Origin: Vicinamibacterales bacterium
GTDB taxonomy: Bacteria; Acidobacteriota; Vicinamibacteria; Vicinamibacterales; CAZQMT01
NCBI GenBank assembly: GCA_965197935.1
Contig: CBDAOD010000002.1
Span: 1,668,464 to 1,732,463 of the forward strand
DNA: 64,000 nucleotides
Reading direction: 5' to 3'
Part shown: in pieces, positions 31,254-51,092 of the stretch
How the letters are laid out: each line of letters begins with the position of its first letter
Numbering within the stretch: the stretch's first letter is position 1
Program-made: the position numbers and the translations under genes
Notes under the pieces: model-generated
What the model saw: only the letters and a program-made list of their open reading frames with translations
The model's database searches: none
Told to the model about the DNA's origin: nothing

Positions 31254-32303
31254 ATGCCCGCAGTCGCCGCCCTCGCCACGGCCGTCCCTCCCTTCCGCTG
31301 CGACCAGGCGATGGCGCGTGAGGCGGTGGTCCGACTCTGCGCGGGCCGGCCGGATCTGGAGCGTCTGGCGCCGGTCTTCGGCCGGGCAGGAGTCGAGACC
31401 CGCTACCTGGTGCATCCACTCGAGTGGTACACCGAGGGTCGACCGTTCGACGAGCGCAACCGGGAGTTCCTGGCGAAGGGGCTGGATCTCGCCGAGGTCG
31501 CGGCGCGCGCGTGCCTGACGAAGGCCGGGGTGGATCCCCACCAGGTCGACCACCTGTACTTCGTGACGACGACGGGTCTGACGACACCGAGCCTGGATGC
31601 GCTCCTCGCGCCGCGGCTGGGGCTGGGACCCCACGTGCGGCGGTCGCCGCTCTTCGGTCTCGGGTGCGCGGGTGGAGCGGGGGCCCTGATCCGCGCGTGT
31701 GAGGTGCTGCGCGGTGCACCCACGGAGCGGGCACTCGTGGTGTCGGTCGAGCTCTGCAGCCTCGTCTTCTCACCGCGAGCCCGCACGCCGACGGACCTGA
31801 TCGGTGCGGCGCTCTTTGGTGACGGCGCGGCGGCGGTGCTCGTCGCCGGAGACGCGGCCGCGCCGGCGGGACCCTCGGTCGTCGCCACGCGGTCGCTGCT
31901 GTTCCCCGAGCGCCGCGATCTCATGGGCTGGGATTTCACCGCGGACGGGATGCGGCTGGTGCTGTCGCGTGAGATTCCACGATTCGTGGAGACGGAGGTC
32001 GGCCCGAGCATCCTCCAGTTCGCGCGCGACAACGGCGTGGCGCTGTCTGCCGTCGATCACTGCATCCTGCACCCGGGTGGGCCGAGGGTGATGGCCACCT
32101 ACCGCTCGGCGCTCGGCCTCTCGGAGGCGTCGCTGCAGCTTGCGCGGGAGTCGATGCGACGCTACGGCAACCTGTCGAGTGGCGCGGTGCTCTTCATGCT
32201 GAGCGACCTCGTCTCGGCCGGGCAAGCCAAGCGCGGGGACACGGGGCTGATGGTGGCGCTCGGTCCCGGCTTCGCTGCCGAGATGCTCGTCCTCGAGTGG
32301 TGA
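31254..32303 (+). CDS. Type III polyketide synthase
   Basis: Catalytic triad GLGCAGG (Cys), HPGG (His), GNLSS (Asn); ALFGDGAAA; GPGF. Confidence 0.93.
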   Translation: MPAVAALATAVPPFRCDQAMAREAVVRLCAGRPDLERLAPVFGRAGVETRYLVHPLEWYTEGRPFDERNREFLAKGLDLAEVAARACLTKAGVDPHQVDHLYFVTTTGLTTPSLDALLAPRLGLGPHVRRSPLFGLGCAGGAGALIRACEVLRGAPTERALVVSVELCSLVFSPRARTPTDLIGAALFGDGAAAVLVAGDAAAPAGPSVVATRSLLFPERRDLMGWDFTADGMRLVLSREIPRFVETEVGPSILQFARDNGVALSAVDHCILHPGGPRVMATYRSALGLSEASLQLARESMRRYGNLSSGAVLFMLSDLVSAGQAKRGDTGLMVALGPGFAAEMLVLEW

Positions 32304-32363
32304 TGCCTTCTGGCGGCTGACGCGCCCGGCCTCCTGCCTGTGACGCCAGCGGCCGTGGGGGTG

Positions 32364-32798
32364 TCAGGCTCGGAGGGTGTCGTCCGGACGGCAGACGCCT
32401 CCCTCGCAGGGGGTCGCATCGCGTCCGCTCAGCCAGTAGCGGTGTCGGGCGATGAAGCGATACGCGCGGTCGGCCACCCAGGCGATGGGCGGGATGTAAT
32501 ACGCGAGCGCGAGTGACCCGAGTCCGGGGTGTCCCTGGTGGAGGGCCTGGGCGATCGCCTCGGCTCCACCGTACAGACGACCCGCGGGATCGGCGAGGAC
32601 GATCTCACGCATGCAGCGTTCGGCGGTGAGGCCGGGGAACCGCTCGAGGAGCCGCGTCTCGGCCGGACGCGTGACGATGCGGGGGCCGGCGAGCCGCGAG
32701 AGTCGCGCCGCCTGTGCCCGGCAGAATCCACAGCGCCCGTCGTAGATCAACAGGGGGGTACCCGCCCGGTGAGCGGCCTGATCCAAGGGGTGTGTCAT
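32364..32798 (-). CDS. DCC1-like (DUF393) thiol-disulfide oxidoreductase
   Basis: IYDGRCGFC ... YRFIARHRY. Confidence 0.88.
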   Translation of the reverse strand: MTHPLDQAAHRAGTPLLIYDGRCGFCRAQAARLSRLAGPRIVTRPAETRLLERFPGLTAERCMREIVLADPAGRLYGGAEAIAQALHQGHPGLGSLALAYYIPPIAWVADRAYRFIARHRYWLSGRDATPCEGGVCRPDDTLRA

Positions 32799-33023
32799 GA
32801 GCTGCGGCCGATCGAAAGCCGGGTTTCATCTTATCACCGCGGTGTGTCGAACGTGCGGCCCGGCCCGCCGGCCGCGGGCCCACTTGGAACCCGGTCCGGC
32901 GAGAGGAAGCACGCCGCAGCCCGCGCCGAGGCGCCCCGGACCGCCCGGCCTGCTGGGTGCCCGCCACCGTTGGCGGATCGGTAGGCTCCGTGTAGACTCA
33001 GCGGCGTATAGGGAGGCTCGACC

Positions 33024-34391
33024 ATGTTCCGACGCGCGTTGTTCGCGGTGGTGGGCGCGCTGCTCATCCACGGGAGCGCCCTACACGCCCAGGAGTCTCA
33101 TTGGCCTCAGTGGCGCGGACCCGACCGCAACGGGGTCTCGACCGCGGCCGACCTGCCGCTCGAGTGGAGCACGACGGAGAACGTCCTGTGGAAGGTCGCC
33201 ATCGAAGGCCGGGGGCACTCCTCTCCCGTGGTGTGGGGCAAGAACATCTTTCTGACGACCGACATCGAGGGGGACGTCATCCCGGGCGCCCACGCGCCGG
33301 AGCACCTTCGCGCCGGAGAGCCCTACCTCCATCCGGCTGCGCAGAGTGCCGATCGCCGGCATACCCTCAAGGTGCTGGCCATCGATGCCGACACCGGCCG
33401 AACGCGGTGGTCGCGAACCGTGCACGACGGTCGAGTGTTCGACAACCGGCACGGCCGAAACACCTACGCCACTCCGACCGCTGTCACCGATGGTGAGCGC
33501 GTCTACGCCTACTTCGGCTCGCAGGGCCTGTACGCGTTCGATTTCGGCGGCACGCTCGCATGGGACGTCGATTTCGGCGATGTCTCGACCTGGGGGCACG
33601 GCCACGGCACGTCTCCGCTGCTGTTCGGGGGCCTGCTCATCCTGCAGATCGATCAGAACGAGGGTGACGGATCTCGGCTCGTAGCGCTGGACAAGGACAC
33701 GGGCGCGGAGGTCTGGAACACACCACGCGCGGAACGCATCGACTACAGCAGCCCCATCCTGATCGGCAGCGGGGACCGGACGGAGATCGTGACGACGAGC
33801 TACCAGAACGTCATCGCCTACGATCCCAGGACCGGCGCGGAGCGCTGGCGGAGCTCGGGATTCCTGGGGAACGGCGTTCCCACCGCAGTCGCGAACGAGC
33901 ACATGGTCTTTGCGGTGTCGGGCTATCCCGACAAGGTTACCCGCGCGATCCGGATCCCCACCGATGCCGACACGCCTGCCACGGTCGACGCCGTCTGGGA
34001 GTATCGAAAGGGCACGGGCTACACGCCGTCGCCCTTGCTGTATCGCGGACATCTCTATCTCGTGTCGGACAAGGGGCTGCTCACGTGTATCGAGCCGGAT
34101 ACGGGCAGACTCGTGTACGAGGGCGGACGGGTTCCGGTCCCGACCTTCGTTCGCGCGTCTCCCGTCGCCTGGGAGGACAAGATTCTCCTCTCCGGCGAGG
34201 ATGGCGACTTCTTCGTGGTCCAGGCAGGACCCGAGCACAAGGTGCTCGCGCACAGCTCGATCGGCGAACGGGTCATCGCGTCACCCGCGGTGGCGGAGGG
34301 GCGCTGGTACATCCGAGGTGAGCAGCACCTCTACGCGATCGGCACGGACACGGCCGCGACCGCGGCGCCCCCCCCCGGACAGGTGCCATGA
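33024..34391 (+). CDS. PQQ-binding-like beta-propeller protein
   Basis: WPQWRGP, GHSSPVVWG, ATPT.VTDG, SPLLY, ASPAVA...IRG. Confidence 0.9.
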   Translation: MFRRALFAVVGALLIHGSALHAQESHWPQWRGPDRNGVSTAADLPLEWSTTENVLWKVAIEGRGHSSPVVWGKNIFLTTDIEGDVIPGAHAPEHLRAGEPYLHPAAQSADRRHTLKVLAIDADTGRTRWSRTVHDGRVFDNRHGRNTYATPTAVTDGERVYAYFGSQGLYAFDFGGTLAWDVDFGDVSTWGHGHGTSPLLFGGLLILQIDQNEGDGSRLVALDKDTGAEVWNTPRAERIDYSSPILIGSGDRTEIVTTSYQNVIAYDPRTGAERWRSSGFLGNGVPTAVANEHMVFAVSGYPDKVTRAIRIPTDADTPATVDAVWEYRKGTGYTPSPLLYRGHLYLVSDKGLLTCIEPDTGRLVYEGGRVPVPTFVRASPVAWEDKILLSGEDGDFFVVQAGPEHKVLAHSSIGERVIASPAVAEGRWYIRGEQHLYAIGTDTAATAAPPPGQVP

Positions 34392-34491
34392 TCGGCCCGA
34401 CGGGGTCTCGCCGACGGCCGTGTGACGGGACCCGTTCGGCGCGAGCCACGCCGCGGGGTTGGCTCGGAGTCCAGGAAGGAAGGTGGTTCGC

Positions 34492-35721
34492 ATGTCCCGT
34501 GATCAGCCCGGACGCGTAGCGCGGCGCGCCCTGGTCGGCGCGCTCCTGGTTGCAGCCGGGATGCTCTGCCCGCCGGGGTCGGGGCTCGGTTGGATGGGTG
34601 CCAGCCGGGGGACCGCCAGCCTGGCCGCGGTTGGCGCGACGCCCGGGTCGCAGACGGGAGAGCGATTCGTGCCCTCGCGACCCGAGACCGTGACGTGGGG
34701 ATGGTTTCCCGTCGACCGTCCCCCCGTCCTGACCATCCAGTCCGGAGACACAGTCCGCATCGACACGCTGACCCACGCCGGTGCGACGCAGGATGAGGAT
34801 CCGGTCACCTACCTCGGCGCGCTCGGTGTCGAGAAGGACGAGATCCTGCAGGACGTCCTCGACTTTTGGGCGTCGCGGCGCCAGCGGCCCAGAGAGGGGC
34901 GGAGCGGACACGTCATCACCGGCCCGGTCGCCATCGAGGGCGCAGACCCGGGGGACATGCTCGAGGTGCAGATCCTCGACGTGCGGACCCGCGTGCCATA
35001 CGGGATCAACAGTACGAACGCGAGGAGCGGCGTCTTCGATCCCCGCTATCCGGGGGCGCGTCGCGCAGATCCGCCGCTGGACATCCCGAGGACCCAGCAT
35101 TTGATTCGAACGGCCGTCGTGGGCGGTCGCGAGGTCGCGCTCTTCTCCCCGGAAATCGAGGTTCCCCTGGCGCCGTTCATGGGCATCATGGGCGTCGCAC
35201 CCGCCGACCCGGTGGATGGGCAGCCCGGCGTGACCGTCCCGGGGATTCAGAGCTCACGGCCCCCGGGGGCCTTCGGCGGCAACATGGACGTGAGGGATCT
35301 CACGGCCGGAACGACGCTGTATCTCCCCGTCTTCCAGCCGGGCGCGCTGTTCTACGTCGGCGACCCTCACTCCGCTCAGGGCGACGGCGAGGTCAGCGGC
35401 ACGGCCATCGAGCAGTCGCTCACGGGGGTCTTCAGGTTCGTCGTCCACGAGGGGAAGGCGATCGCCGGCCCACGCGCCGAAACCGAGACGCACTACATCC
35501 TGATGGGGATCGACCTCGATCTGGATAGGGCGCTGCAGCTGGCGGTCCGCGAGGTTGTGGCCTTTCTCGTCGAGGAGAAGGGCCTGACGCGAGCCAAGGC
35601 GTTCTCGCTGGCCAGCATCGCCGTCGACTTCCACGTGGCCGAAGCCGTCGACCTCACGCAGGTCGTTTCTGGAAAGATTCCGAAGAGCCTCTTCCTCTCG
35701 GCTACTGCAGCAGCGCGTTGA
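34492..35721 (+). CDS. Acetamidase/formamidase-family protein
   Basis: HVITGPVAIEGA.PGD, FGGNMD, GDPHSAQGDGEVSGTAIE. Confidence 0.92.
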   Translation: MSRDQPGRVARRALVGALLVAAGMLCPPGSGLGWMGASRGTASLAAVGATPGSQTGERFVPSRPETVTWGWFPVDRPPVLTIQSGDTVRIDTLTHAGATQDEDPVTYLGALGVEKDEILQDVLDFWASRRQRPREGRSGHVITGPVAIEGADPGDMLEVQILDVRTRVPYGINSTNARSGVFDPRYPGARRADPPLDIPRTQHLIRTAVVGGREVALFSPEIEVPLAPFMGIMGVAPADPVDGQPGVTVPGIQSSRPPGAFGGNMDVRDLTAGTTLYLPVFQPGALFYVGDPHSAQGDGEVSGTAIEQSLTGVFRFVVHEGKAIAGPRAETETHYILMGIDLDLDRALQLAVREVVAFLVEEKGLTRAKAFSLASIAVDFHVAEAVDLTQVVSGKIPKSLFLSATAAAR

Positions 35722-38295
35722 ACACGAGCTTGAAGGTGCCGTAGGTCTGTGCCCGATGCTGCGGGCGGAATCCGATGAGCACCACACGTCCCTCCCCGTA
35801 GCCCGCGGAAACCATGGCGGCGCGTTTCGCCAGGTGCTCCTCGCCGATGAGCCAGCCGCTCCGCAGGATGTCACGGTCGCGATAGCGCACGACGGTCTCG
35901 TAGCGCGCGTTGGCCCGAGAGGGCGTGATCTCGAACGCCGGGTTGCTCCAGAAGAGCGCGAGGGCTTCCGACGGCATGCCGTACGCGAGCGGGTGAGTGG
36001 GGTCGACATCGACCCACAGCGTCGAACCCGGACAGAAGAACTCCTTCGTGGGCACGTCCGCGAGGACGTTGCTGACGTGGAGGGCGAACGCCTCGATGGC
36101 GAACTCGGTGGCATTGCCGAAGCTCACGAGCATCCCGCCCTCGCGGACGAAGGCCTTCAGCGCCTCGACGCCGTCACCGGCCAGGCCGCTCATGTACTCG
36201 GGCGGGTAGGACTGTGGCGCCGCGGGATCGACTTCGACCTTGTCGTCCAGCGGATCGACGTCACCCGTGATGAGATCCTTGGGATCGTGGGGGATGATGA
36301 TGACGTCGAGCGTCGAGCGCAGCCCTCCCTTCTCGATATCCGCGTCGTGGAGGGTCGTGTACGGAAAACCGAAGCGCTCGAGGAGGAACCGCGTCCAGCC
36401 CTCGTCCATACTGCCGCCGCGATAGCGCTGGTACATGCCCACGCGCATCCGGTTCACGTCACCGAGGCCCCCGCTCGGCGTCTCGGTGATCGCGTCGAAG
36501 TCCACCCCCGTCGCGGTGGCGACCCGCCGTAGCACGTCGCTGGACGCATCGCCCACGATGAAATCGCCGCCCGGGTCGTCGTCGGACGGCACGACGCGCT
36601 GGACCGTCACACCTTCGTCGATCAAGAGATTGACCGCCTTGTAGCTGAGGTTCATTCGGCCATCGAGACGGTGCCGCGAGCCGGGGGCCACGTTGCCGGG
36701 TGTGGGATCCTCGTCGTCGAGGATCTCGAGGCGCCCCTCGACGGGCGACCCCACCGGGTCGACCCGGACGCCCATGAACTCCGACATGGTGTGGGTGGCC
36801 GTGTCGTAGGGCCGTAACGGCGAGCCGTCGCGCGCTCGAGTCCACTCGTTGTCGGGATAGTCCGTGCGGCCCATCAGGTTGCGGATGAGGCCCATCTTCG
36901 GTTGCGCGAGGGAGATGACGTACGAGCCGGCCCCGTACTGCATGCCGTCGACCTCGAACGAGGCGGTGGCTTTGCCAACCTCGATGTCTGACTTCAGCAG
37001 GGTGTTCACCATCTTCACTGCGGTGAGGCGATCGTGTTGGCGTGCGGGCACCACGTAGGCCTTCACGTCACCGGCGGCGCCCCGCTCGATCTGCCGCTGC
37101 GCCTTCAGGTAGCCGTTGCGCAGGATGGTCTCGCGGTTTCGGGCCGCACTGTCGAGGATGGCCCAGGCCGCGACCTTCTGCTGCTCGACGATGTCCCGCA
37201 CGCGCCACCAGCCGCCCGGCCAGACGTTGGGCATCGTCGACTGCGCCTCGTACACGGGGAACTGCCGCGCGCCGCCCTGAAGCTGCTCGGGATGCAGATA
37301 GAGCGGCGTCGCGAGGCTCGCGCTCGCCGATTCGGTCAGCATGCCCGCCATGTTGTGGAACGGCGTGATCCAGTGCCAGCCGAAGTGACCCCAGCCGGGG
37401 TACTGTCCGTTGTTCAAGATCCCGGCCTTCTCGTGCTGCTCCAGCTTGTAGGCGATGTGTGCCCCGTACCAGGAGTGCTCGCGCCAGACCAACGGGTCCG
37501 CGTAAGGCCGCATGGGCTCGCTATAGGGCGGCACGTACATCCGGGGGCCGTAGGCGCCCATCTGGTGGTGGTCCACGTAGGCCTGCGGCGTCCAGTCCCG
37601 GTAGAGCACCTTGGCCGTGTACACCGCCTCGATCTGATTCAGAAAGTCCGCATCCCGGTTGTTATCGTGGCCGACGTATTTGTGATACAGCCAGGGCAGA
37701 TTGGAGCCTTCGTACTCGGTGTCCAGAGTCTCCCGATACCAGTCGGTCACCATGATCTGCCGTCCGGATTGAAGCAGGGAAACATCAGATGGACGACGTT
37801 ACCCAGGATTCGCTGCGTCTCCGCGTCGTTCCGGGAGGCGAGCTCGTAGGCCAGCTCGGGTGCGGTCTGCGCCGCCGCGACCTCGGTCGAGTGGAGGCCG
37901 AAGGACTGGCTCACGACGGCCTTTCCCTCGGCGATCAGTCGCTCGATGTCCTGCTCCGACCGTCCGCGCGGATCGCCAAGCTGATTGTTCATCTCTCGGA
38001 TGGTCGCGAGGTTCGCATGGTTCTCGGGCGACGTCACGATGGCCAGGAGATAGGGATGCCCCTCGGTCGACGGGCCGAGGTCGATGACCTCGATCCGGTC
38101 GCTCTCGCTGGCGAGGAGCTCGAAGTATTCGACAATCTTGTCCCAGCGGGCCAGCTCCCTGTCCGCACCCAGTTGGTGACCGAAGAAGGACTCCGGGGTC
38201 GTGATGTCGTTGGCACGCTGGAGCTCGCGGGCGTCGAGAGACGCCGAGACGAGCAGGAGTAACGCGATCCACGCCTGCAGACGGATCTTTTTCAT
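35702..38295 (-). CDS. M14-family zinc carboxypeptidase with C-terminal GATase-like domain (frameshift at ~37759)
   Basis: GLHSTE, NPDG, HKYVGHDNNRD, DHHQMG, SMDEGWTRF, GFRPQHRAQT. Confidence 0.88.
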
Positions 38296-38629
38296 GGCTA
38301 CCTCGTTGCTCCGAGAAGGGTCATGTGGCCGGGACGCGCCCCGTGGCCGCCCACGCACGACGAAAAGCCGGACCGCTCGCGTTGTCGAGGGCCCCCGGGT
38401 CATTCTATGACCGCCGAGCCGGCGCGTCCACGCCATACGCCGCCGCCACAGACCCGGGCGCGACGAGCTGGTAAGATCTTCCTGGTTTGGCCGGTCGTCG
38501 TGAAAGGAGTGAGATGGCGAAAATTCGAGGGTGAGCGAAACTTAGTTGGAAATTGAAACGGCTCCCACACCCTGTGGTTTGATGACGTTAAGCAAAACGG
38601 CCATCAACCCACGAGAGAAAGGAGCCGAG

Positions 38630-39909
38630 ATGAGCAGTGTCCTACGTCCTGTCAGGAAGCGCAAGAAGGGTCGCAAGCTGGGCCGGGTCGAGGTCATCCG
38701 GCGCGAGGACTACACCGCGCTGGAGCTGGACGCCAAGGTGGAGCTGATCCGCTCGCTGGTCCCGCTGGGCTTGATGCACGTGGAGGAGGTGCTCGACGAG
38801 GAGGTAACGGCGCTGGCTGGCGAGCGCTACGCCCGCAAGGCCGCGTCGATCGGGGGCCGCCGGCACGGTAGCAACCCTGGGACCGTCGGCCTGGCGGGGC
38901 AGCGGGTGCCGATTCGGGTGCCGCGGGTGCGCGGGGTCGCGGGGCGGGAGATTCCGTTGCGCGCCTACGAGGCGTTGCATGGCGACGGCGCGGTGAATGA
39001 CCTCCTGCTGAAGCGCGTGCTCTATGGGATCTCGTGTCGCAACTACGAGGCGGCCGCCGAGGCGATTCCCGGCGCGATCGGGCTGTCGGGGTCGACGGTG
39101 TCCCGAGGCTTCATCGAGGCCAGCGCCGCGAAGCTTCACGAGCTCCAGGAGCGGGACCTGGCCGCTGAGGACGTCGTGGCCATCGTATTGGACGGCAAGA
39201 CGTTCGCCGAGGCCACAATGGTCATCGCACTGGGCATCACCATTTCTGGGGCGAAACACTTCCTCGGCTTCGTGGAGACGGACACGGAGAATGAGCGGGT
39301 GCTGACGCTGTTCTTGCGGTCGTTGGTCGAGCGGGGCTGGACCTCTCGCAGGGCCTGCTGGTGATCCTCGACGGCAGCAAGGGGCTGCGGGCAGCCGTCC
39401 GGAAGACCTTCCGCCACCGCGCCCTGGTCCAACGGTGCCAGTGGCACAAGCGGGAGAACGTGGTGAGTCACCTGGCCAAGAGCGAACTGGCGGCGTGGCG
39501 TCAGCGCCTCCAGCGCGCCTACAACCGGCCGGAGTACGACGAGGCCCTCACGGCGCTCAAGACGCTCCAGGGCGAGCTCGACGAACGGAACCAGTCGGCG
39601 GCTCGGAGCTTGACAGAAGGTCTGGACGAAACCTTAACGCTGCATCGCCTCGGGCTGTACGGGGTGCTGGGCCGGTCGCTGAAGACGACGAACTGTCTGG
39701 AGTCGGTCAATGCGCTCGTTGAGGAACGCTGTGCGAAGGTTGACCACTGGCAGAACTCGAGCCAACGCCACCGCTGGCTGGCGACCGCGCTCCTGGACAT
39801 CGAGCCGCGCCTGCGGAAGCTGATGGGCTACCGCCACCTGCCCACGCTTCGTGCCGCGTTGAAGCAAGAACTGAAGATCGACACGACGACATCGAAGAAG
39901 GCCGCATGA
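38630..39909 (+). CDS. IS256-family (mutator-type) transposase (frameshift at ~39335)
   Basis: GISCRNY, VLDGK, ILDGSKGL, QRCQWHKRENV, TTNCLES. The break lies in a GGGG run. Confidence 0.9.
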
Positions 39910-40830: not shown

Positions 40831-40915
40831 GTAGCAGGACTTTGCCATTGGCTGCTGCTACGGTGAGGCTATCAGGTCGTTCCACACCACAACTCACCGC
40901 CGCGGTCGTGCGAGG

Positions 40916-43794
40916 TTACTCATCCAGCTGCGCGTACTCCGCCCTCGCCTCGCGCAGTGCGGGTAGGTCCGCGTCGGCGTCTTTCCAGATCGCGAAGACG
41001 GCTTCGTAGGCCGATCGGGCCGCCGCATCCTCGCCGGCCAGGACGCGCGCGCGGGCGAGAGCCAGAGAGGCGAGTGGCTGCAGGCACGAGAACGGGTCGA
41101 CGCCGCGGTGATCCAGGATCGTCTGGAACTCGGCGGCCGCGGCCGGGCCGTCCGCCCGCGCGCGATGGGCCTCGCCGCGGAAGTAGAGCGGCCCGAGGGC
41201 GGCGACGGTTCCGAGCTGATAGGGGGTGGCCATGCGTAGCGTCTCCAGCGCGAGCGCGGGATCGCCACGGGCCAGGGCGATGGCCGCCCTTGCGATGGGC
41301 ACGTACACGCCCTGGATCAACGTGGACGTCGGGTATGGTGATGCCTCCGCGACGAGTCGCTCCGCCGCCTCGGGCTGTCCCGTCATGGCGAGCACGACAG
41401 TCAGCCTGAGACCGACGACGCTCGAGGCCCCGTCGGTCAGGATCGTCTCGGAGAGCGCCCGCGCCGCCTCTGGGTTCCCGTATAGCACCTCGGTCAGGGC
41501 GTGTTGCGCCCCGTAGCCGGCGGCCACCTCCGAGAAGTTGCGGAGTCGCGCCATGTCCATCGCCTGGGCGTAGAGGTCGCGGGCGTCGCGCAACCGACCG
41601 CTGTGGGCGAGTGCCTGTGCGCGGGCGCCAACCAGATCGAATTCGCGGGGGGTGCCCGTGGCCCACTCGCGGTGACGCTGGCTGGCGGCGGTGTCTCCTC
41701 GAAGGAGCGCAATCTGGTAGAGCAGACGTCGCGTCGGTCCGGACGCGATCGACCGGGCGACGGCCTGGTCCGCCGTGCGGACGGCGTCGTCGTATCGATT
41801 GAGGCCGCGGTAGGCGTAGGCGAGGTTGGAGTAGGGAAACGGGTGGGAGGGGTTGCGACGGTTGGCTTCCCGTGCCGCCTCGACGGCCTGCTCGTAGCGA
41901 CCGAGCTGGTTCTGCACCACGGCGAGATTGTTGGCCGGGCTGAAGTCGCGCGGATACAGCTGGCGGAGCACGTTGAGGGTCTGAAGGACCCGATCCTTCT
42001 CGCCGGTCACGCGATCGTGGTACTGGTAGGTGATGCCGAGCCGCTCGCGCTCGCTCACCTTCCCGCGGTGCTCGAAGGCCCGCGTGGCGTGTTCCTCGCT
42101 CCGCCGCGTCTCGCCCAGATTCCCGTAGACGGTCGAGAGCATCATGTGCGCGAGCGCGAAGCTCGGGTCGAGCTCGGTGGCCCTGAGGAGGAACGGGATC
42201 GAGTCGATCTCGTCGCCGCGGGCACGCTCCGCGACGGCCAGCGTGTACGCGCGCAGCGCCCCCAGTGACGGTGTCGTCGCCTGCTCGACCGGCACGTCGA
42301 ACGCTGGAGCGACGCCATCGACTCGCCGAGCTTGGCCCGCGTCCCCGAGGCCACGCGTCCAACCGCCCGCAGCACCTCTTCCTTCCGATCGGCCTCCGCC
42401 TGGTCGCGCGCGAGCGTCTCACCCGTCGCACACTCCGTCGCGTCGAGGGTGACGACGTAGATGCCGCCAAGCTGGGCGATCGACGCCTCCAGCATCGCCC
42501 GCAGTCCCTGCCGTTCGCAGATCTCGAGGGCGACGTCGTGCGTCAGCGAGGCGTCCGGCGAACGCCCCATCAGTCTCAGCGTCTCGCGAATCCGCTGGTC
42601 GGGCACGAGGTCGAGAAAGGGAGACTGGCTGAGCTGTACCGCGAGTGCCTGTCGCAGCGTACCGTCGAACGCGGCGTCCGTCGTGCCGTTCTCGAAATCC
42701 GCCAACAGGACCGAGTCACGCTCGGTGAGAGCGGGCGGCGAGCCAGGGCGAAGCAGCGCGAACGCGAGCGCGAGGAGGACCGCGGCGCCCGCCCCCACCG
42801 CAACGACGAGCCTGCGGGCCGAGCGCCGATTGGTCGACCTCGCCTGGATCGTCGTCGCCGCGGCACCCTCGGGAGGGGTGCCACCGTGGGCCGAGAGCGA
42901 GAGCTCGACGTCATCACCGGCCTCCCGGTTCCGTCGAAGACGCCGCAGGTCGGCCAGGAGATCGGCTGCGCGTTGATAGCGGAGGTCCCGGTCCCTCTCC
43001 GTCGCCTTGTCGAGGATGGGCTCGAGGTCCTCGGGGACGGCCCGGGTGGGCCCGCGAGCCGGCACCGACGTCCGATGCAGGACGACGTCCAGAACGCCAA
43101 CGATCTCCCTGCCCGGGGCGGCCCGAGGCTCCCTCACCAGCTCGTGGAGGACCGCGCCGAACGAGAACAGGTCCGTCCGGGCCTCCAGCGTGTCGCCCCG
43201 CACCTGCTCGGGCGACATGTAGGCCATCGCGTCGGGCGGTACGGTCGGCTGGGCGAGCCCGTCGTGCGAACGTGCCGTGGTCGTGGTGGACGGCGAGGCG
43301 GCCTCGGCGGCTGACGCCGTCTCCTCCAGGATCTGTGCCAGACCGAAACCCAGGAGCTTGACCTGCCCCGCGTGCGTCACGAAGACGCTGGCCGGCGTGA
43401 TGTTCCGGTGGATGATGCCCCGGCGATGCCCGGCCGCGAGCGCCGCCACGATCTCCTGCGCGAGCTCGAGAACGCGATCGACCGACAGGGGCTTCCGACG
43501 CGCCAGCTCGCGGAGTGTCGTGCCCTCGAGCCGCTCCATGGCGAGGAAGGGACGTCCATCGACCTCGCCGATCTCGTGAATCGCGCAGACGTTGGGATGA
43601 TGGAGCGAGGCGACGATCGCGGCGCCACGATGGGAGCACGCGAGGGCCTCGCTGGCGCCGGCGAGGTCCATCGTGAAGACCTTTAGCGCGACCTGGTGCC
43701 CGCCTCGGAGATCCTCCGCGGCGTACACCACCCCAGTGCCGCCCCGTGCCAGCTCGGCGAGCACCCGGTAGTGCGAGATTGTTCGACCGAGCAT
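40916..43794 (-). CDS. Receptor-like pseudokinase: Hanks kinase fold, TM, TolB-N-like domain, TPR (frameshift at ~42301)
   Basis: VALK retained, but HRN-ITPAS replaces HRD-xKPxN, GFG replaces DFG and the alphaC Glu is missing. TM LVVAVGAGAAVLLALAFALL; DSVLLADFEN...QLSQSPFL; TPRs. Confidence 0.85.
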
Positions 43795-43880
43795 GTGGCG
43801 CGTCTATTGGTGAAGCGGGCGGGAGCCCCCGACCGTATGCTCGTGATCGCTCCCACCATAGGTGCGTGGGGCCCCGGCGG

Positions 43881-46800
43881 TCAACGATCGGTTGCGCCGG
43901 TCGGCTCCCGATCGCGCTCCTGCTGGACGCCCAGGTACTCGCGGCGGGCCGCCTCGAGGATGTGGACGTCCGGGTCGGCCTCTCGCCACAGGCCGAAGAA
44001 CGCCTCGTAGGCCTGGCGGCTGGCGACCAGATCGCCCAGGACGGCGAGCGCTCGAGCTCGCTCGAGGTGTGCGAGCGGGTAGTAGCAGGAGAACGGGTCG
44101 ACACCGCGGTGATCGATCAGCTTCTGGAATTCCGCCACGGCCTCGGCGCCCCGTCCTTGCCGCGCGTACGCGACGCCGCGCAGATACGCGGGCACGAGCG
44201 AGGCCACGTTCCCCAGCTCGTAGGACGAGGCGGCCCGCAGGACCTCGATGGCCCGGTCGGGTTCCCCGCGGTCGAGGGCGATGGCCGCCGTGATCACCGG
44301 TCGATAGACCCCGCGGATCTCGGTCGCGCGCGGGCGGCGGGCGGCCTCCTCCTCCAGGATCGCCAAGGCGCGCTCCCACTGCCCGGCCAGGGCGAGCACC
44401 AGCCCGGCACGCAATCGCACGATCGGGCCGACGTCCTCCTGAAGGATGGCGTCCGCCAGGGTCGTGGCCGTCTCCACGTTGCCGTAGGTCACCTCGATGA
44501 TGGCGAGTCTGGCTTTGTACCCCGAGACGACCTCCGAGAACCGTCCCATGCGCGCCATCTCCATCGTCTGGTCGTAGAACCCGCGCGCGTCGTCGAGACG
44601 CCCCTCGAACGCCGCCACCTCGGCACGCGCTCCAGTCAGGTCGAATTCGCGGGCCTTGCCTCGGGCCCAGTCGAGGTGCTGCGCGGCCGCCTCGTCGTCG
44701 TCCTCGAGCCGCGCCAGCTGGTAGAGCAGTCGGCGGGTCGGCACCGTTTCGATCTCCAGCGCGACCGCCTGCTCGGCCACACGCCTGGCTTCGTCGAAGC
44801 GGCTGAGACCCCGCTCCGCGTACGCGAGATTCGAGTAGGGAAACGGGTGCGACGGATCACGACGGATGGCCTCCCGGGCCTCGTCGACCGCCTGTTGGTA
44901 GCGTCCCAGGCGGTTCAGGACGACCGCGAGGTCGCTCGGCGGCACGCGATCGCGAGGATACGACTGCTTGAGCACGGTCAGGGCCTGTAAGACCTCCTCG
45001 GCGTCTCCGGTGACGCGGTCGTGATACTGATAGGTGATGAAGAGTCGTTCGCGCTCCGTCACGTGCTCGCGATGTTCGTACGCCAAGCGGGCGTACCCCT
45101 CGCTCCTGAGCGACTCACCCAGGTTGCCGTACACCGTCGACAGCGTCATGCCAGCCAACGCGAACTGCGGGTCAAGCTCGAGGGCGCGAAGCAGAAACGG
45201 AATCGACCCGATCTCGTTGCTCGCCGATCGTTCGGCGACACCGAGCGTGTACGCGCGGAGTGCCTCGAGCGACGGGGTCGTCGCTTGTTCGATCGGGACA
45301 TCGAACCGCTCGAGCGACGCCAGCGACTCTCCGAGCGTCAGGCGCATGCTCGAGGCGAGGCGTCCCGCCGCGCTCAGGACCTCCTCCTGGCTGTCCGCCT
45401 CGGCCTGCTCACGGGCCAATGCCGCACCGGTCCGACACTCGATGGCGTCGAGCGTCACGACGTAGCGCGACCCTAGTCGTCCGACCGAAGCCTCGAGCAT
45501 GGCCTTGAGGCCCCGTCGCTCGCAGATCTCCCGGGCGGTGTCGTGGGTCAGCGGTTCGTCCGGCGAGCGTTCCATGAGCCGCAGCGTCTCTCGAATTCGG
45601 TTGTCGGCGACGATGTCGAGGAAGGGTGACTGGCTGAGCTGGACCGCCAGCGCCTGGCGCAGCGTGTCGTCGAGCACCTCCTCTCCCGTGTCGTTCGCAA
45701 AGCCGGCGAGCAGGACCGAGTCGCGATTCGTCAGCGTGGCCGCCGGCCGACCGCGAACGAGCCAGACACCGGCGACGATGGCCCCCAGAACGGCGATCCC
45801 GGCCACGGCCGTCAGGGCGCGACTGCCAGACAGGGCGTCGATCCAGCCCGCCCCGGCCCCTGCGCCGACCGCGGGGCCGACACCGGCCGAGCCTCCGGAC
45901 GCGCTCGCCTCAGCCGACCGATCGACCGTGCGTCGGAGCCGCCGCAGATCGGCGACGAGGTCGGCCGCGTCCTGACATCTGAGGTCGCGATCCTTCTCTA
46001 GCGTCTTGTCGAGGAGTCGGTCCAGATCCGCCGGCAGACTTTGATCCCGCATGCGTGGCGAGGGCGGCGTCCGATGGAGGATCGCGGCGAAGACCACCGC
46101 CGCGTTGCGCCCCGGAAAGGCGCGCTCGCCCGTGGCCATCTCGTACAGGACGGCGCCGAAGGAGAACAGATCCGTTCGGAGATCGACGTCCTGGCCTTTG
46201 ACTTGATCGGGCGACATGTAGGCGGTCGTGCCGACCTGCATGCCCGGCTGGGTCAGCTCCTCGGGCGCGGGGTGACCCGGTGACTGCGGCTCGATGGTGC
46301 GGATGTCGTCGGCCGCATCCTGGACGAGCTTTGCGAGTCCGAAGTCAAGGATCTTCACCTGGCCTGCGTCCGTGACGAAGATGTTGGCCGGCTTGATGTC
46401 CCGGTGGATGATGCCGCGACGATGCGCGGCCTCGAGACCTTCGGCGACCTGGAGCGCGATCGTCAGCAGCCGATCGAGAGGAACGGGTTGTCGCTGGATC
46501 ACGTCCCGCAGCGTCATGCCTTCGAGGAGCTCCATGACGATGAAGGGACGCCCGTCATGTTGGCCGATGTCGTAGATCGTGCAGATGTGGGGGTGGTTGA
46601 GAGACGAGGCGATCTTGGCCTCGCGACGGAACCGCTCGATCGCCTCACGCTGACGGGAGAGGTCGGGCGGCAGGAACTTCAGCGCCACCTGGCGGCCGAG
46701 CCGGGAATCCTCGGCCCGATACACGACGCCCATGCCACCGACACCCAGCTCGGAGAGCACCCGGTAGTGTGAGATGGCTCGACCGACCAGGCCCTCCGCC

Positions 46801-47739
46801 CGCGGGGCCGGCGTCACCGGGACGGTGGTCGGCGCCACGCCAGACTCGGCCAGGGGTGCCACGCCGGCGCCGGCGACCCGCGAGCGATTCGGGTCTCCGC
46901 CGAGTCGTACGAGATCGGCTCGCAGCTCGGCGGCGCTCTGGTAGCGTACCGGCGGCTCCTTCTGCAGCGCCTTGCGGATGATCTCGTCCAGGGCAGACGG
47001 GACGGTGGGGTTCAGGTGGACCGGCGCGGGTGGGATCCGGAGCAGAATCGCATCGAAGATCGACGCCAAGCCTTCACCCTCGAAGGGGAGGGCGCCGGTC
47101 GCCATCTCGTAGAGGACCACGCCGACGGAGAACAGATCCGAGCGTGCGTCGATGGCCTTTCCGAGCACTTGCTCCGGTGACATGTGGGCCGCTGCGGCGA
47201 TCGAGAGATCCTGGCCAGAGAGGTGCGGCGTCTCGATTCGGGTCGGCGCCTCGGAGGTCACTGGCAGCCGGCCCACGTTCGCCAGGCCGAGGCCGAGCAG
47301 CTTCACCTGGTCGTCCCGCGTGACGAAGATGTTCGCGGGCCTGATGTCGCGGTGGAGGATCCCCTGGGCGTGCGCAGCTACGAGCGCGTCGGTGATCTGG
47401 ATCGCAAGATTCATCGCCGTTTCGGCGGGCACCGGCGCGCCGGCGATTCGATGTTCGAGCGTGTGTCCCTCCAGCAGCTCCATGGCGATGAAGGGCCGCT
47501 CGTGGGCGACATCGACGTCGTAGACGCGGCAGATGTTCGGGTGGTCCAGCGCCGCCGCCGCGTGGATCTCGAGGACCACCCGCTCGAACGTCGGCGGATC
47601 GGCCGCGACGGCTTCGGGCAGAAGTTTCAGGGCGACGTGACGGTCGAGCGTGGTGTTCCGAGCGCGATAGACGACGCCGGTCGGGCCGGCCGTCCCCGAG
47701 CTTGTCGAGGAGGCGATAGTTGGAGATCGTCTCGATCAC
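43881..47739 (-). CDS. Tandem pseudokinase-kinase receptor with TM, TolB-N-like domain and TPR (frameshift at ~47695)
   Basis: Domain 1: [15 protein letters not shown] instead of DFG. Domain 2: [37 protein letters not shown]. Then TM and TPRs. Confidence 0.88.
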
Positions 47740-47760
47740 CCTCTAACTGTATGGTACGCT
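47740..47760. promoter_or_regulatory. Overlapping divergent -10 elements
   Basis: Minus-strand TACAGT lies 6 nt before the kinase GTG (leaderless-like); plus-strand TATGGT at 47750-47755; only 38 bp between the two starts. Confidence 0.45.
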
Positions 47761-47777
47761 CACCGATCGTGCGAGCG

Positions 47778-50700
47778 ATGGTCCCGAGGATCGTGTACCT
47801 GACGCTGTTCGCCGTGCTGTCGAGTACGGCGTCGGGGGTAGGCCAGACGCTGACGGTCGACGGCGCGAGTGCCCGGACCGTCCGCTTGGGGCAGGATTTC
47901 GCCACGACGGCCTACGGTGACCCGTGGGACTTCTCGCAGCCGAGCGACTACCTGTTCATGCTGTCGGACGGGTGGGGCGGAGCGGTTCCGACGGTCGCCA
48001 ACGGCAAGTTGAGCGGGCAGGTGTCGGCCGCCGATGTGGCGTTTCCAGCACTGATGCTTCAGTTCGAGGGCTCCATTGGGCATCTGAATCTGGTCGGACG
48101 CACCGGCGTAGCCTCCCCCATCGACGCCAATACGTATCGGCGGCTCTCGTTCCGCATGCGCCGGGCCCCAGAGACCAGCAGCCCGCTGGATACCTTCGAT
48201 GCCACGTGGTTTTTCGACATTCCGCGCACCACCAGCACGATCGGCGCACGACTGGCGCTAACGCGGGGCTTCGACGATCTGAACAAACGCTATCCCAACC
48301 AATCGCCGATTGCGCTGCAGTCAGCCGCCCAGTACCACATCTACAAGATCGATCTCGATGGCGCCGGCTGGGGTTTCGCACCCAACTGGGCGGGCAACGT
48401 GCTGGGCCTGCAGCTCGGGCTGGGCGAAGGCAGCCTGAACCCGGGGGGCCTGGGTGGCTCGACGATCGACGTGGACTGGGTCCGACTGACGAGCCGCGGT
48501 ACCCACACGGCACAGTTGGCCTGGAGCGGATTCGGTGGGCGCATCACGCTCACCGCCACCAACGGCGTCGACACCATCCAGATCTTTCCGGACGACGGCA
48601 CTCCCACGGCCGACTTTGCGGCCGCGGCGTCACTGACCTGGGACTACGGCTTCCTGCCGCCGGGAACGTGGACCGTCAGCGCGAGCGACGGCCTCTCCTC
48701 TCGCTCGATTTCGCTCGTCATCGATCCGGCTCCAATCATTTACCTGACCGAGCCCGATGCCTCCGGGGGCCGCGATTGGGCCACGACGGAGTTCGGCGAT
48801 GCCTGGGACTTGACGAACCCGGAGGACATCGAGCGCCACGGGTTGTTGAACAACGTCGGCAACGCGACGTTCGCTGGAGACGGCCTGACCGCCATCAACG
48901 CGGCCACCGGCCCGCTGGGTTCGCCGACCGCGAGCGACCCGGCCGTCTACCTCCTTGGTGATCCGTTCGAGCCGCCAGGCCCGACCGTCGACGCCGCGAC
49001 CTACCGTCACCTGACGTTCACGATCGATCACGACCGCGAAGGCCTTTCACTGAGCGAAGCACTCGGCCCGTTCGGGGGTCTGCTCACGCTTGTGTGGGGG
49101 CAACGGGGCACCGGTCAGCTCAGCCAAACCCAGGGCTTCTTTCCGACCGACGGCCTCCCCACCACCTACTCGGTGGATCTGGCCGCCTTCACGCGTTTTG
49201 GCTCCAACAGCAGTTGCGTCGACTGTTATCTCCAGACGGAGGGCGGGACGGATCTGTGGCAGGGACGGATCGAGACGTTGCGTATCGACCCGTTCATCCC
49301 CACCGTCACCCGCTCGTTCCGCCTCGCCAACATCAAGCTGGCTGCCGATGATGAGTCGAACGGCAACGGCCTGTTCGCGATCAGATGGAATGCGACCGAC
49401 GCGAGCTTCACTGCTGCGGCGCGCCCCGAGGAAAGCACGGCGGCGTCCAATGCGACCGTGACGCTCTCCTACGATACGGACACCGCCCCGGCGTCCGGGC
49501 TGGTGCAGATCGCATCGGGCATTCTGGCAAGCGATGGCCAGTTCCTCTGGAAAGTCGCGGGCGTGCCGGCGGGCCGCTACTTCATTCACGCGCAGATCAC
49601 CGACACGACCGGCAACACTCAGGCTCGCTACTCGACCGGGCCCGTGCGGATCGCCTCGGTCGTGTCTGCCTTTGTGGACGGGGCCGGGGACGGCATGGCG
49701 GACGACTGGGAGGCGGCGTTCGGCGTGAGCGACCCGAAGGGCGACGACGACATGGACGGTGTGACCAACCTGGTCGAGTTCGAGTCGGCCACCGATCCGA
49801 CGGTGCCGAATACGTGGATCCTGCCCGAGGGAGCGACCGGATTCTTCCGAGAGCGGATCGCGGTGGCGAACCCGGGTACCGAGCCCGCCGACCTCGTCGT
49901 CACGTATCTCCGCGAGGGTGCCGCGCCGATCGTGCGTGACTACTCGGTCGCGGGCATGGCGCGGCTCACGATCGACGTGAACACCGTGGCCGGTCTGGCG
50001 AACGGCGCGGTGTCCGCGGTCGTCACCGTGACCCGCGGCGCCGTCGTCGTCGAGCGGACCATGTCCTGGGACGACCGGACCGGCGCGCTCTACGGAGGTC
50101 ACACCGGAAAGGGTCTCAGCAGGCCAGGCACCGAGTGGTTCCTGGCGGAAGGGGACGCCGCCTTTTTCGAGACGTCCATCCTGCTCGCGAACGCGAACGG
50201 GGTACCGGCTGCCGTGAACCTCGAGTATCTGCTGACGAATGGCACGGTGGTGTCGCACGCCCTCACCGTGGACGCGAACTCGCGATTCACGATCTTCACC
50301 AACGCCGTCAGCGGGCTGGCGGGCCAGGCCTTCTCGACGAGGGTCACTAGCAACGTGCCGATCACGGTCGAGCGTGCCATGTACTTCGGCTCGGGTGTCC
50401 GGCTCTTCAACGGTGGACACGAAGCCGCCGCCGTGCCCGCCGCGTCGACCAGCTGGTTCGTCGCCGAGGGCACCACCGCGGGCTTCTTCGACATGTTTCT
50501 CCTGTTGGCCAATCCGGGCGCGACACCCGTGACCGCCACACTCGATTATCTGAAGCCCGACGGCAGCGTGATCGTCCAGACCGTACCCCTGGCCGCCACG
50601 AGTCGCACGACGATCGCGGTCGATGCGATCGCCGGGCTCGAGGACACGGACGTCTCGGCCGCGATCACGGCGACCGGGCCGATCGTCGTGGAGCGGTCGA

Positions 50701-51092
50701 TGTTCTGGCCCACGCCCTTTACGAGCTGGTATGAATCCCACAACAGCGCGGGTGTGACCGATACCGGCACGCGGCTGGTGCTGGCCGAGGGTGAGCTGGG
50801 CGGACCGCTCGACTTCCAGACGTTCATACTCTTCGCGAACCCGACCGTGACCGACGCGACGGTTACCATGACGTTCCTCCGCACGACGGGCGCTCCGATC
50901 GCCCACACGTTCACGGTGCCGGCGCAGTCTCGAGTGACCAGGTCCACCGGCGAGTTCGCGCTGCAGAACGAACGCTTCGGCGTCCTCGTCACCTCCTCGG
51001 TGCCGATCGCGCTCGAGCGCGCGATGTACTGGAACGCTCTGGGGGAGATCTTCTCGGCCGGCACGAACGAGACCGCCGTCAAGCTGAGGTAG
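47778..51092 (+). CDS. Large secreted multidomain protein (two beta-sandwich repeats, Ca-binding segment, four WxxAEG repeats)
   Basis: Signal peptide; GQDFATTAYGDPWDF and GRDWATTEFGDAWDL; DGMADDWE...DDDMDGVTNLVEF; WILPEG, WFLAEG, WFVAEG and LVLAEG units each ending in a xxERxM motif. Confidence 0.82.
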   Translation: MVPRIVYLTLFAVLSSTASGVGQTLTVDGASARTVRLGQDFATTAYGDPWDFSQPSDYLFMLSDGWGGAVPTVANGKLSGQVSAADVAFPALMLQFEGSIGHLNLVGRTGVASPIDANTYRRLSFRMRRAPETSSPLDTFDATWFFDIPRTTSTIGARLALTRGFDDLNKRYPNQSPIALQSAAQYHIYKIDLDGAGWGFAPNWAGNVLGLQLGLGEGSLNPGGLGGSTIDVDWVRLTSRGTHTAQLAWSGFGGRITLTATNGVDTIQIFPDDGTPTADFAAAASLTWDYGFLPPGTWTVSASDGLSSRSISLVIDPAPIIYLTEPDASGGRDWATTEFGDAWDLTNPEDIERHGLLNNVGNATFAGDGLTAINAATGPLGSPTASDPAVYLLGDPFEPPGPTVDAATYRHLTFTIDHDREGLSLSEALGPFGGLLTLVWGQRGTGQLSQTQGFFPTDGLPTTYSVDLAAFTRFGSNSSCVDCYLQTEGGTDLWQGRIETLRIDPFIPTVTRSFRLANIKLAADDESNGNGLFAIRWNATDASFTAAARPEESTAASNATVTLSYDTDTAPASGLVQIASGILASDGQFLWKVAGVPAGRYFIHAQITDTTGNTQARYSTGPVRIASVVSAFVDGAGDGMADDWEAAFGVSDPKGDDDMDGVTNLVEFESATDPTVPNTWILPEGATGFFRERIAVANPGTEPADLVVTYLREGAAPIVRDYSVAGMARLTIDVNTVAGLANGAVSAVVTVTRGAVVVERTMSWDDRTGALYGGHTGKGLSRPGTEWFLAEGDAAFFETSILLANANGVPAAVNLEYLLTNGTVVSHALTVDANSRFTIFTNAVSGLAGQAFSTRVTSNVPITVERAMYFGSGVRLFNGGHEAAAVPAASTSWFVAEGTTAGFFDMFLLLANPGATPVTATLDYLKPDGSVIVQTVPLAATSRTTIAVDAIAGLEDTDVSAAITATGPIVVERSMFWPTPFTSWYESHNSAGVTDTGTRLVLAEGELGGPLDFQTFILFANPTVTDATVTMTFLRTTGAPIAHTFTVPAQSRVTRSTGEFALQNERFGVLVTSSVPIALERAMYWNALGEIFSAGTNETAVKLR

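Follow-up and report, generated by a model that had tools for sequence, protein, structure and literature searches.

A putative active–dead receptor kinase pair in a Vicinamibacterales genome and its conserved counterparts in two related families

Two adjoining genes, here called A and B, lie on the reverse strand of the window, by which we mean the whole 64,000-nucleotide stretch analysed (positions 1,668,464 to 1,732,463 of contig CBDAOD010000002.1, Vicinamibacterales bacterium assembly GCA_965197935.1). Their sequences predict two paralogous receptor kinases encoded in tandem, each spanning the membrane once and made up of a cytoplasmic Hanks-type kinase region, a membrane helix and a periplasmic sensor built of a TolB-N/LpoB-like domain and TPRs. 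Gene A carries two kinase-like domains in series, KD1 and KD2 (kinase domains 1 and 2), and gene B carries a single one whose catalytic residues are largely lost. The reading that we somewhat favour is that B is the dead partner in a heteromeric sensor, that KD1 was joined to A by gene fusion, and that the pair has been broken recently. The host genome, from a soil-type member of the Acidobacteriota, is 6.54 Mb in 3 contigs with its completeness rated 100%, the G+C content around the locus is 66-73%, and every homologue of the locus proteins comes from a metagenome-assembled genome (MAG) of Acidobacteriota.

A sequence-only reading of this DNA had described two adjoining, co-oriented paralogous receptors sharing a membrane helix, a TolB-N-like domain and a TPR region. 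Open reading frames (ORFs), Pfam and a fold model confirm this layout. B is found downstream of A on the same strand with an intergenic gap of 86 nt, and the first residues of A are the usual N-terminus of the receptor family. Read from position 47654, A has 2 Pkinase stretches with 276.6 bits (cut-off 31.7) in addition to TPR families. The N-terminal part of B has one Pkinase match of 88.4 bits against the same cut-off, while its C-terminal part matches TPR families. Both proteins score above the gathering score of PF00069 and are placed among the Hanks-type kinases. For the part that links the membrane helix to the TPRs, neither Pfam nor PDB gives a sequence match. An AlphaFold2 model of A residues 641-810, built with 47 family sequences, has a pLDDT of 92.5, and its best Foldseek matches are the LpoB C-terminal domain (E 2.3e-07, TMt 0.73) and the TolB N-terminal domain (E about 1e-06). 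The label TolB-N-like is thus right as the description of a fold, which is where its support comes from.

Kinase positions are given here in what we take to be PKA residue numbering (K72, E91, D166, K168, N171 and D184). KD2 has all catalytic motifs (VALK, HRD and DFG) and is the sole domain of the three with a catalytically competent sequence. KD1 keeps the VALK Lys, the αC Glu, the HRD Asp and the catalytic Asn. Its HRDIRPAN motif is at 47331-47354, a GLG is found within 47280-47297 in place of DFG, and Ala stands where activation-loop Thr residues normally sit. The B kinase domain reads ARGGTG, VALK, Gly for the αC Glu, HRNITPAS (43387-43410), GFG (within 43336-43353) and DAMAYMSPE, with the activation-loop Thr absent. 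The alignment thereby confirms the motifs as they had first been called, namely GLG with HRDIR in KD1, a canonical KD2, and HRN, GFG and no αC Glu in B. The available text of PMC12599244 and of the bSTK atlas preprint (10.1101/2025.01.12.632604) defines a pseudokinase by sequence as a domain in which at least one of the VAIK Lys, the HRD Asp and the DFG Asp is gone. By this definition KD1 is a predicted pseudokinase through its DFG Asp, and B through its HRD Asp and DFG Asp, with E91, K168 and N171 also gone. A deviation at any of the six positions is seen in 10 of 252 kinase-domain matches in 240 homologous proteins, 1 of the 10 being a fragment; among the 229 single-domain homologues, P0233 and B are the only ones that deviate. 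The motif regions are unchanged in contigs of further runs, which come from two studies (X4, 47077-47411; X5, 43104-43581; X3, 43197-44271).

The kinase tree places the B domain as sister to KD2 (support 0.88; 0.90 in a second tree), and the sensors of A and B are sisters in the sensor tree (support 0.994). From the common node the branch to KD2 measures 0.45 and that to the B kinase domain 1.02, which indicates that the latter has changed about twice as much since the duplication. In root-to-tip rank among 251 domains KD1 is first, being the longest, and B is fourth. Identities to six outgroup proteins locate the change in B: the kinase domain is 56-64% identical in A and 46-49% in B, the TolB-N-like part 58-64% in A and 59-67% in B, and the TPR part 52-55% in A and 50-54% in B. 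Judged by these identities, the loss in B is confined to the kinase domain; only that domain has evolved fast, and the sensor is as conserved as that of A. B as a whole gene appears to have been kept by selection through most of its history. A constrained sensor is thus combined in B with an impaired kinase, as is expected of a HER3-like protein.

A similar pair is found in related genomes. Using the A sensor, 401 genomes of the order were searched with at most 3 candidates scored per genome, and family members are found in 177 of them, a tally that takes in the unpublished genome G319; the sensor profile leaves out G038 and G025, which are wrongly cut fragments. Many of the matches sit in adjoining pairs. 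We fetched 44 regions, picking them by hand on the grounds of adjacency, similarity or the length of their open frames, and the set is not a random one. Two other families of the order, f18 and f19, contribute 9 genomes each, 18 in all, in which a canonical receptor gene lies upstream and a dead paralogue downstream on the same strand. In the dead copies the motifs are VAVQ, RRQAH, HGHVRP and GLG for f18, and HGN or HAN together with ELG for f19. For 15 active–dead pairs the inferred gap lies between -4 and +53 nt, and 3 of these pairs overlap by 4 nt. Among the copies that are whole, the 15 dead ones group in one clade and the 15 active ones in another, with a support of 1.0 each in both the kinase and the sensor trees, which points to one old duplication retained by f18 and f19. 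A dN/dS analysis of the dead domains had been suggested beforehand, and the relatives' dead copies allow it. By the Nei–Gojobori method (NG86), at a dS of 0.7-1.1 and over pairs which are not independent, the median dN/dS of the dead domains is 0.24 in f18 (36 pairs) and 0.34 in f19 (15 pairs); the active domains give 0.17 (28 pairs) and 0.30 (15 pairs). With values of 0.24-0.34 the dead domains of f18 and f19 are, on codon comparison, under purifying selection and predicted to be functional. The window pair, with A followed by B on the same strand and with the same sensor type, fits the pair order of f18 and f19.

Other arrangements are present among the 44 regions. Two regions of the f5 clade hold pairs whose upstream copy has a single triad loss, 1 region has a pair too broken to call, 13 have a single gene, and 2 have a sensor without a kinase. 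In the more distant f5 clade, the upstream copy of L128 (G298) reads HRNLKPAN and that of L130 (G368) reads HRDLHLGN with EFG, while both copies of G272 are canonical; the single-loss upstream copies may be early stages of the same trend. At L143 (G289) and L144 (G249), ORFs of ~806 residues carry the same sensor module and no kinase domain, and another output domain may precede the sensor there.

A heterodimer model, also suggested in the sequence-only reading, was made of the B kinase domain and KD2 of A. It reaches a score of 0.68 against 0.00 for the best of 3 controls, these being unrelated proteins, so that the pass does not separate heterodimers from homodimers and may reflect solved kinase dimers. 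Of 80 solved complexes, 58 attain the score mark that it passes, as do 2 of 110 mismatched pairs; these counts apply only roughly here, since our own alignments were used. Agreement between the runs is at least 100% of contacts, and the partner pLDDT is at least 75. The modelled interface is symmetric and pairs residues 259-291 of the KD2 piece with residues 259-288 of B, in the C-terminal helices of both. The model is thus in favour of a contact between the two domains. In the mechanism that we propose, A and B would form a joint, heteromeric sensor, with KD2 as its only phosphorylating domain. The dead partner would add ligand sensing and would regulate the active partner via the C-terminal helices of the kinase domains. 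It would work as HER3 does with HER2, without common ancestry. The HER3-like, kinase-dead co-receptor proposed for this locus is therefore supported as far as comparison goes, by a loss in B confined to the kinase domain, by the 18 conserved pairs and by the fold model, while its heterodimer and allostery are what we infer.

A different role for B and the conserved dead partners would be that of decoys or negative regulators, which bind the ligand or the active partner and damp signalling. A conserved sensor joined to a dead kinase would suit such a role. In addition, the modelled contact is symmetric and made by C-terminal helices common to all family members, and a dead subunit could hence poison active homodimers. 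However, the tight co-transcription suggested by the 4-nt overlaps would give equal protein amounts, and an obligate complex would fit this better than a titrating decoy; we consider the decoy role rather unlikely. A wider proposal can be put forward tentatively, as one possibility that we would not yet bet on. The family would consist of obligate active/dead heteromers encoded side by side, as a bacterial counterpart of HER2/HER3. Such pairs would have arisen at least twice independently, once before the split of f18 and f19 and once in the window lineage, where A would also have captured a dead domain in cis.

Both genes are frameshifted in the window. In A, a tandem GGCCGGCC breaks the frame near the start, and the remainder is open from 47654. 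With one GGCC copy fewer the frame would be restored and would read LGDGPTGVVY, a GxGxxGxV loop. B is one base short within CAGCGTTCGAC, where its paralogue A reads ...ERFDVP.... Programmed frameshifting was considered and rejected, as no slippery heptamer is seen by eye at either site. Read-derived data from 7 runs of 3 studies, none of them on record as RNA, cover parts of the locus, and 4 runs were compared, all as contigs. Contigs of run X1 over 46382-47800 and 40900-43222 equal the window exactly and span both frameshift sites. A contig of run X5, from a second study, equals the window exactly over 42223-42525, with no gap at the B site. Another X5 contig, over 47586-47800, falls 4 letters short of the window, with a gap that can be placed only within the contig as a whole; a length polymorphism at the A frameshift site is plausible. 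A pattern scan of metagenome contigs for either allele of the GGCCGGCC site gave 0 matches.

To be noted, the genome as a whole has few such breaks. A scan for phase changes in third-position G+C (GC3), which is our own heuristic with rough counts and which caught the B break and missed the A break (where the N-terminal piece has only 17 codons), gives 86 frameshift-like junctions in 6.54 Mb by its strict count and 231 by its loose one. Homopolymer runs of at least 6 accompany 7% of the junctions versus 2.5%, which is little enrichment. With so few junctions and so little homopolymer enrichment, the assembly does not seem to be riddled with indel errors. The strict rate predicts ~0.09 breaks per 6.8 kb, versus the 2 observed. 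Both frameshifts are probably real, and the A–B pair has most likely been inactivated recently in the window genome. A would have lost the start of KD1, though it might conceivably still yield KD2 without KD1 from an internal start; B would be split in two. The sequence-only reading had asked that both frameshifts be corrected from reads and had named real frameshifts as a sign of decaying duplicates. The read-derived contigs carry both of them, and this unfavourable outcome probably holds.

The frameshifts might instead be assembly or sequencing errors common to the data sets, both genes being intact in the cell. P0006, which is A as called in another assembly, is identical over residues 196-1105 and has a different frameshift near 1105. 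The sequencing platform of the runs is off record, X1 may be the source sample, and receptor genes are also split in 7 of the 44 related regions. These points would suit an error, but at the B site contigs of two studies (X1 and X5) match the window without a gap, a duplication of 4 bases in tandem is what slippage typically leaves behind, neither site consists of a long homopolymer, and the GC3 counts given above are low. We find this explanation doubtful. The split genes in the related regions, found at L110 (G231), L114 (G240), L122 (G361), L125 (G391), L116 (G096), L129 (G090) and L133 (G135), would themselves be either MAG assembly errors or frequent real inactivation.

Several observations weigh against our reading of B as a retained dead partner, beyond the choice of the regions and the controls of the complex model already mentioned. 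No B orthologue is found in the species genomes (best identity 48%, among the best 80 of 421 relatives) or in the protein collection, where the best relatives reach 51-54% and the 54% match is gene A from another assembly. Given that B and KD1 have no orthologues and that A and B are too diverged, the dN/dS of B or KD1 themselves is not computable. Adjoining pairs with two canonical kinases make up 8 of the 44 regions. The single-nucleotide polymorphisms (SNPs) of B in run X4 are non-synonymous in 2 of 2 cases (T to A and T to P), both genes are broken, and a transposase of the IS256/Mutator family lies ~1 kb downstream of B (38546-39909, forward strand), all of which fits decay. Finally, B groups with A and not with the f18/f19 dead clade in the free kinase and sensor trees. 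In the approximately unbiased (AU) test, joining B to that clade is rejected on the sensor alignment (p 0.00067, for a group named after the tree had been seen) and not rejected on the kinase-domain alignment (p 0.257), so that an independent origin of B rests on the sensor. Either the B kinase has died independently, or the pair is old and sensor sequence has been exchanged between A and B, as far as the trees can tell.

If decay were the whole story, B and KD1 would be eroding duplicates without a non-catalytic role, and their dead motifs and frameshifts would be stages of one process. One frameshift per gene in read-derived contigs, the SNPs of B, the nearby transposase, the longest or near-longest branches of KD1 and B, and the lack of a KD1 counterpart in relatives could all be explained in this way. 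Such plain decay is nevertheless improbable, since the sensor of B is as conserved as that of A over ~600 residues at ~55% divergence from relatives. After long neutral decay one would expect neither such a conserved sensor nor a frame of 2.9 kb broken only once. In the 18 genomes, moreover, comparable dead partners are kept at the dN/dS values given above.

KD1 has a history of its own. No counterpart of it is found in 40 relative genomes or in the 44 fetched regions, and its best match in its own genome is KD2, with 43%. The search among relatives thus finds one half of what had been expected, an active gene with an adjoining dead paralogue, in 18 genomes, and the other half, the two-kinase architecture, in none of the 44 regions. 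KD2 starts exactly at the family N-terminus. Before it comes the Pro/Ala-rich linker with a GGAGG, and the place of the ATG of B is taken by a CTG (46790-46805, reverse strand). With KD2 at the family start position, the fusion of two neighbouring genes is the simpler reading of KD1, and we propose that KD1 came from an upstream kinase gene fused in frame onto A. The GGAGG and CTG inside A could be a relic of the start before fusion, or a weak internal start.

It had been proposed that KD1 and KD2 form a JAK-like tandem, with KD1 as a working pseudokinase that regulates KD2 in cis as JH2 does in JAK. In A the dead domain does precede the active one within one chain, and KD1 keeps K72, E91, HRD and N171 in an open frame of 260 codons. 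A group of tandem receptors (P0001-P0004 and P0150) likewise has its first domain degenerate, variously through NFG, SFG, or E91Q with K168R, and pseudokinases in cis may be functional in some lineages. The JAK-like proposal is nonetheless not supported, and we regard it as improbable. KD1 is found only in the window genome among those examined, has the longest branch of the 251 domains, is frameshifted at codons 17-18, and is followed by GGAGG and CTG at the ancestral KD2 start, with KD2 at the family N-terminus. No FERM or SH2 family of Pfam is found in A at E up to 0.01, and A is thus not placed among JAK-like proteins. The accompanying statement that such an architecture was not known in bacteria is too strong, though no paper on it was found. 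Among the 150 best cluster representatives, 99 have at least two full kinase domains (two in 80 of them, three to six in the other 19), and multi-kinase proteins appear to be common among metagenome proteins. The catalytic triad is kept in both domains of 71 of the 80 two-domain representatives; 3 are dead–active, 5 active–dead and 1 dead–dead.

Larger chains are also seen. The cluster representatives P0242, P0244, P0245, P0248, P0249 and P0256 have 4 to 6 kinase domains per chain of 1500-2600 residues. In 5 of the 6, dead domains come first and the chain closes with two or three canonical ones, and P0248 has four canonical domains. The host genome itself gives 57 matches to gene A, nearly all of them to the kinase domains. 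Further kinase paralogues of this genome are in pieces in differing frames, for example at about 538882-539764 of contig C2.

Table 1. Features of the A–B locus, in window positions (strand - is the reverse strand)
Feature	Position	Strand	Details
Gene A, predicted receptor Ser/Thr kinase with two kinase domains	43881..47739	-	GTG start 47739, stop 43881-43883; frame broken at codons 17-18 (ORFs, Pfam)
Tandem repeat GGCCGGCC, frameshift site of A	47684..47691	-	
KD1 of A, kinase-like	46872..47739	-	DFG Asp lost (GLG), HRDIRPAN, no activation-loop Thr
Pro/Ala-rich linker of A	46803..46871	-	ends GGAGG, then CTG at the family start-codon position
KD2 of A, canonical kinase domain	45903..46802	-	
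Membrane helix of A	45756..45818	-	read from sequence (21 residues)
TolB-N/LpoB-like domain of A	45225..45734	-	fold model and Foldseek
TPR-rich part of A sensor	43884..45224	-	profile matches
Gene B, predicted kinase-dead receptor paralogue	40916..43794	-	ATG start 43794, stop 40916-40918; broken after codon 498 (ORFs, Pfam)
Predicted pseudokinase domain of B	42919..43794	-	E91G, D166N, K168T, N171S, D184G
Membrane helix of B	42751..42810	-	
One-base deletion, frameshift site of B	42299..42303	-	
End of TolB-N-like domain and TPR part of B, in shifted frame	40919..42298	-	

Two overlapping ORFs divide the transposase downstream of B between them, one matching profile positions 20-223 and the other 230-371 of 379. 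At 35702-38436 on the reverse strand, an ORF of 229 aa that matches only positions 3-103 of 286 in the M14 carboxypeptidase profile abuts an ORF of 683 aa without a Pfam match; another gene that is broken or unusual may lie here. Genes for a type III polyketide synthase-like protein, a PQQ/BamB-like beta-propeller and a formamidase-family protein are found at 31254-35721. On the other side of the pair, a large gene divergent from A (about 47750-51092, forward strand) encodes ~1100 residues with a signal-peptide-like start and has no Pfam match.

Among known systems, A and B resemble the PknB-type receptor kinases in their N-terminal cytoplasmic kinase, single membrane helix and extracytoplasmic sensor, and NF033483 matches the kinase part. 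The sensor of the PknB type is built of PASTA domains, whereas here it is TolB-N/LpoB-like with TPRs, and a second kinase-like domain and an adjoining dead paralogue are present. HER3 (ErbB3) with HER2/EGFR is similar in that a ligand-sensing paralogue with an impaired kinase stands beside an active one, and the HER3 kinase motif is HRN. There is no common origin, however. The proteins described here are of the bacterial Ser/Thr type with the kinase N-terminal to the membrane helix, they are encoded by an operon-like pair, and their heterodimer is a modelled one. HER3 serves as an analogy only. Receptor tyrosine pseudokinases are treated in a review (PMC13259870, available part).

JAK/TYK2 resembles A in that one chain carries both domains, the dead one ahead of the active one. 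The defining features of the JAKs are the FERM and SH2 receptor-binding domains and the contact by which JH2 inhibits JH1; the pseudokinase–kinase tandem of JAK/TYK2 was reportedly described by Lupardus in 2014. Unlike these proteins, A is without FERM-SH2, and KD1 keeps the VAIK Lys and the HRD Asp and is not conserved in relatives. Plant tandem kinase proteins arose by duplication or fusion. Most of them are immune proteins of the cytosol in which, unlike in A, the kinase precedes the pseudokinase. A shares with them a kinase and a pseudokinase in one protein, as in WTK1/Yr15 (PMC6170490; review PMC8761531; both from the text available). In the available text of that review 'prokaryot' does not occur, and none of its 3 uses of 'bacteria' concerns bacterial tandem kinases.

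Seven bacterial pseudokinase families, namely ActPs1-3, GLW, CP1, DYD and DLHK, have been described (PMC12599244; 10.1101/2025.01.12.632604), and according to the accessible parts of these sources they are, like B and KD1, Hanks-type folds without catalytic residues. Loss of the VAIK Lys occurs among the members of every one of them, though in just part of CP1 and DYD, whereas B, KD1 and most f19 dead partners keep this Lys, with G336 reading VAVR. CP1 is without a membrane region, unlike B. As far as the accessible text describes the seven families, nothing in them is like a membrane receptor with a dead copy beside an active paralogue, and the words 'tandem' and 'Acidobacteri' do not occur in that text of either source. 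NCBIfam TIGR04510, a putative peptide modification system cyclase, matches the membrane-proximal and sensor part of A over positions 215-791 of 814. With 205.2 bits against a cut-off of 400, A is not a member of this family, and a kinase stands in place of the first 214 positions of the model. The name of the model suggests that cyclases use the same sensor module too. In the literature no paper was found on bacterial tandem kinase–pseudokinase proteins or on acidobacterial pseudokinases, in a search that left subscription papers and bioRxiv supplements outside, and the supplementary tables of the atlas might list such proteins.

What is new here is a conserved active–dead receptor pair in 18 genomes, whose dead domain is by its dN/dS under purifying selection, and a second, probably independent case in the window. 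The conserved pair in the relatives is the more valuable lead, the window copy being probably broken and hence less useful as a specimen. Bacterial pseudokinases have been catalogued but are largely unexplored experimentally, as stated in the part of a 2025 review that is available (PMC12599244). With two genes, bacterial expression and many natural variants, the pair would offer a simple setting in which to study the regulation of a live kinase by a dead one and the evolution of that state.

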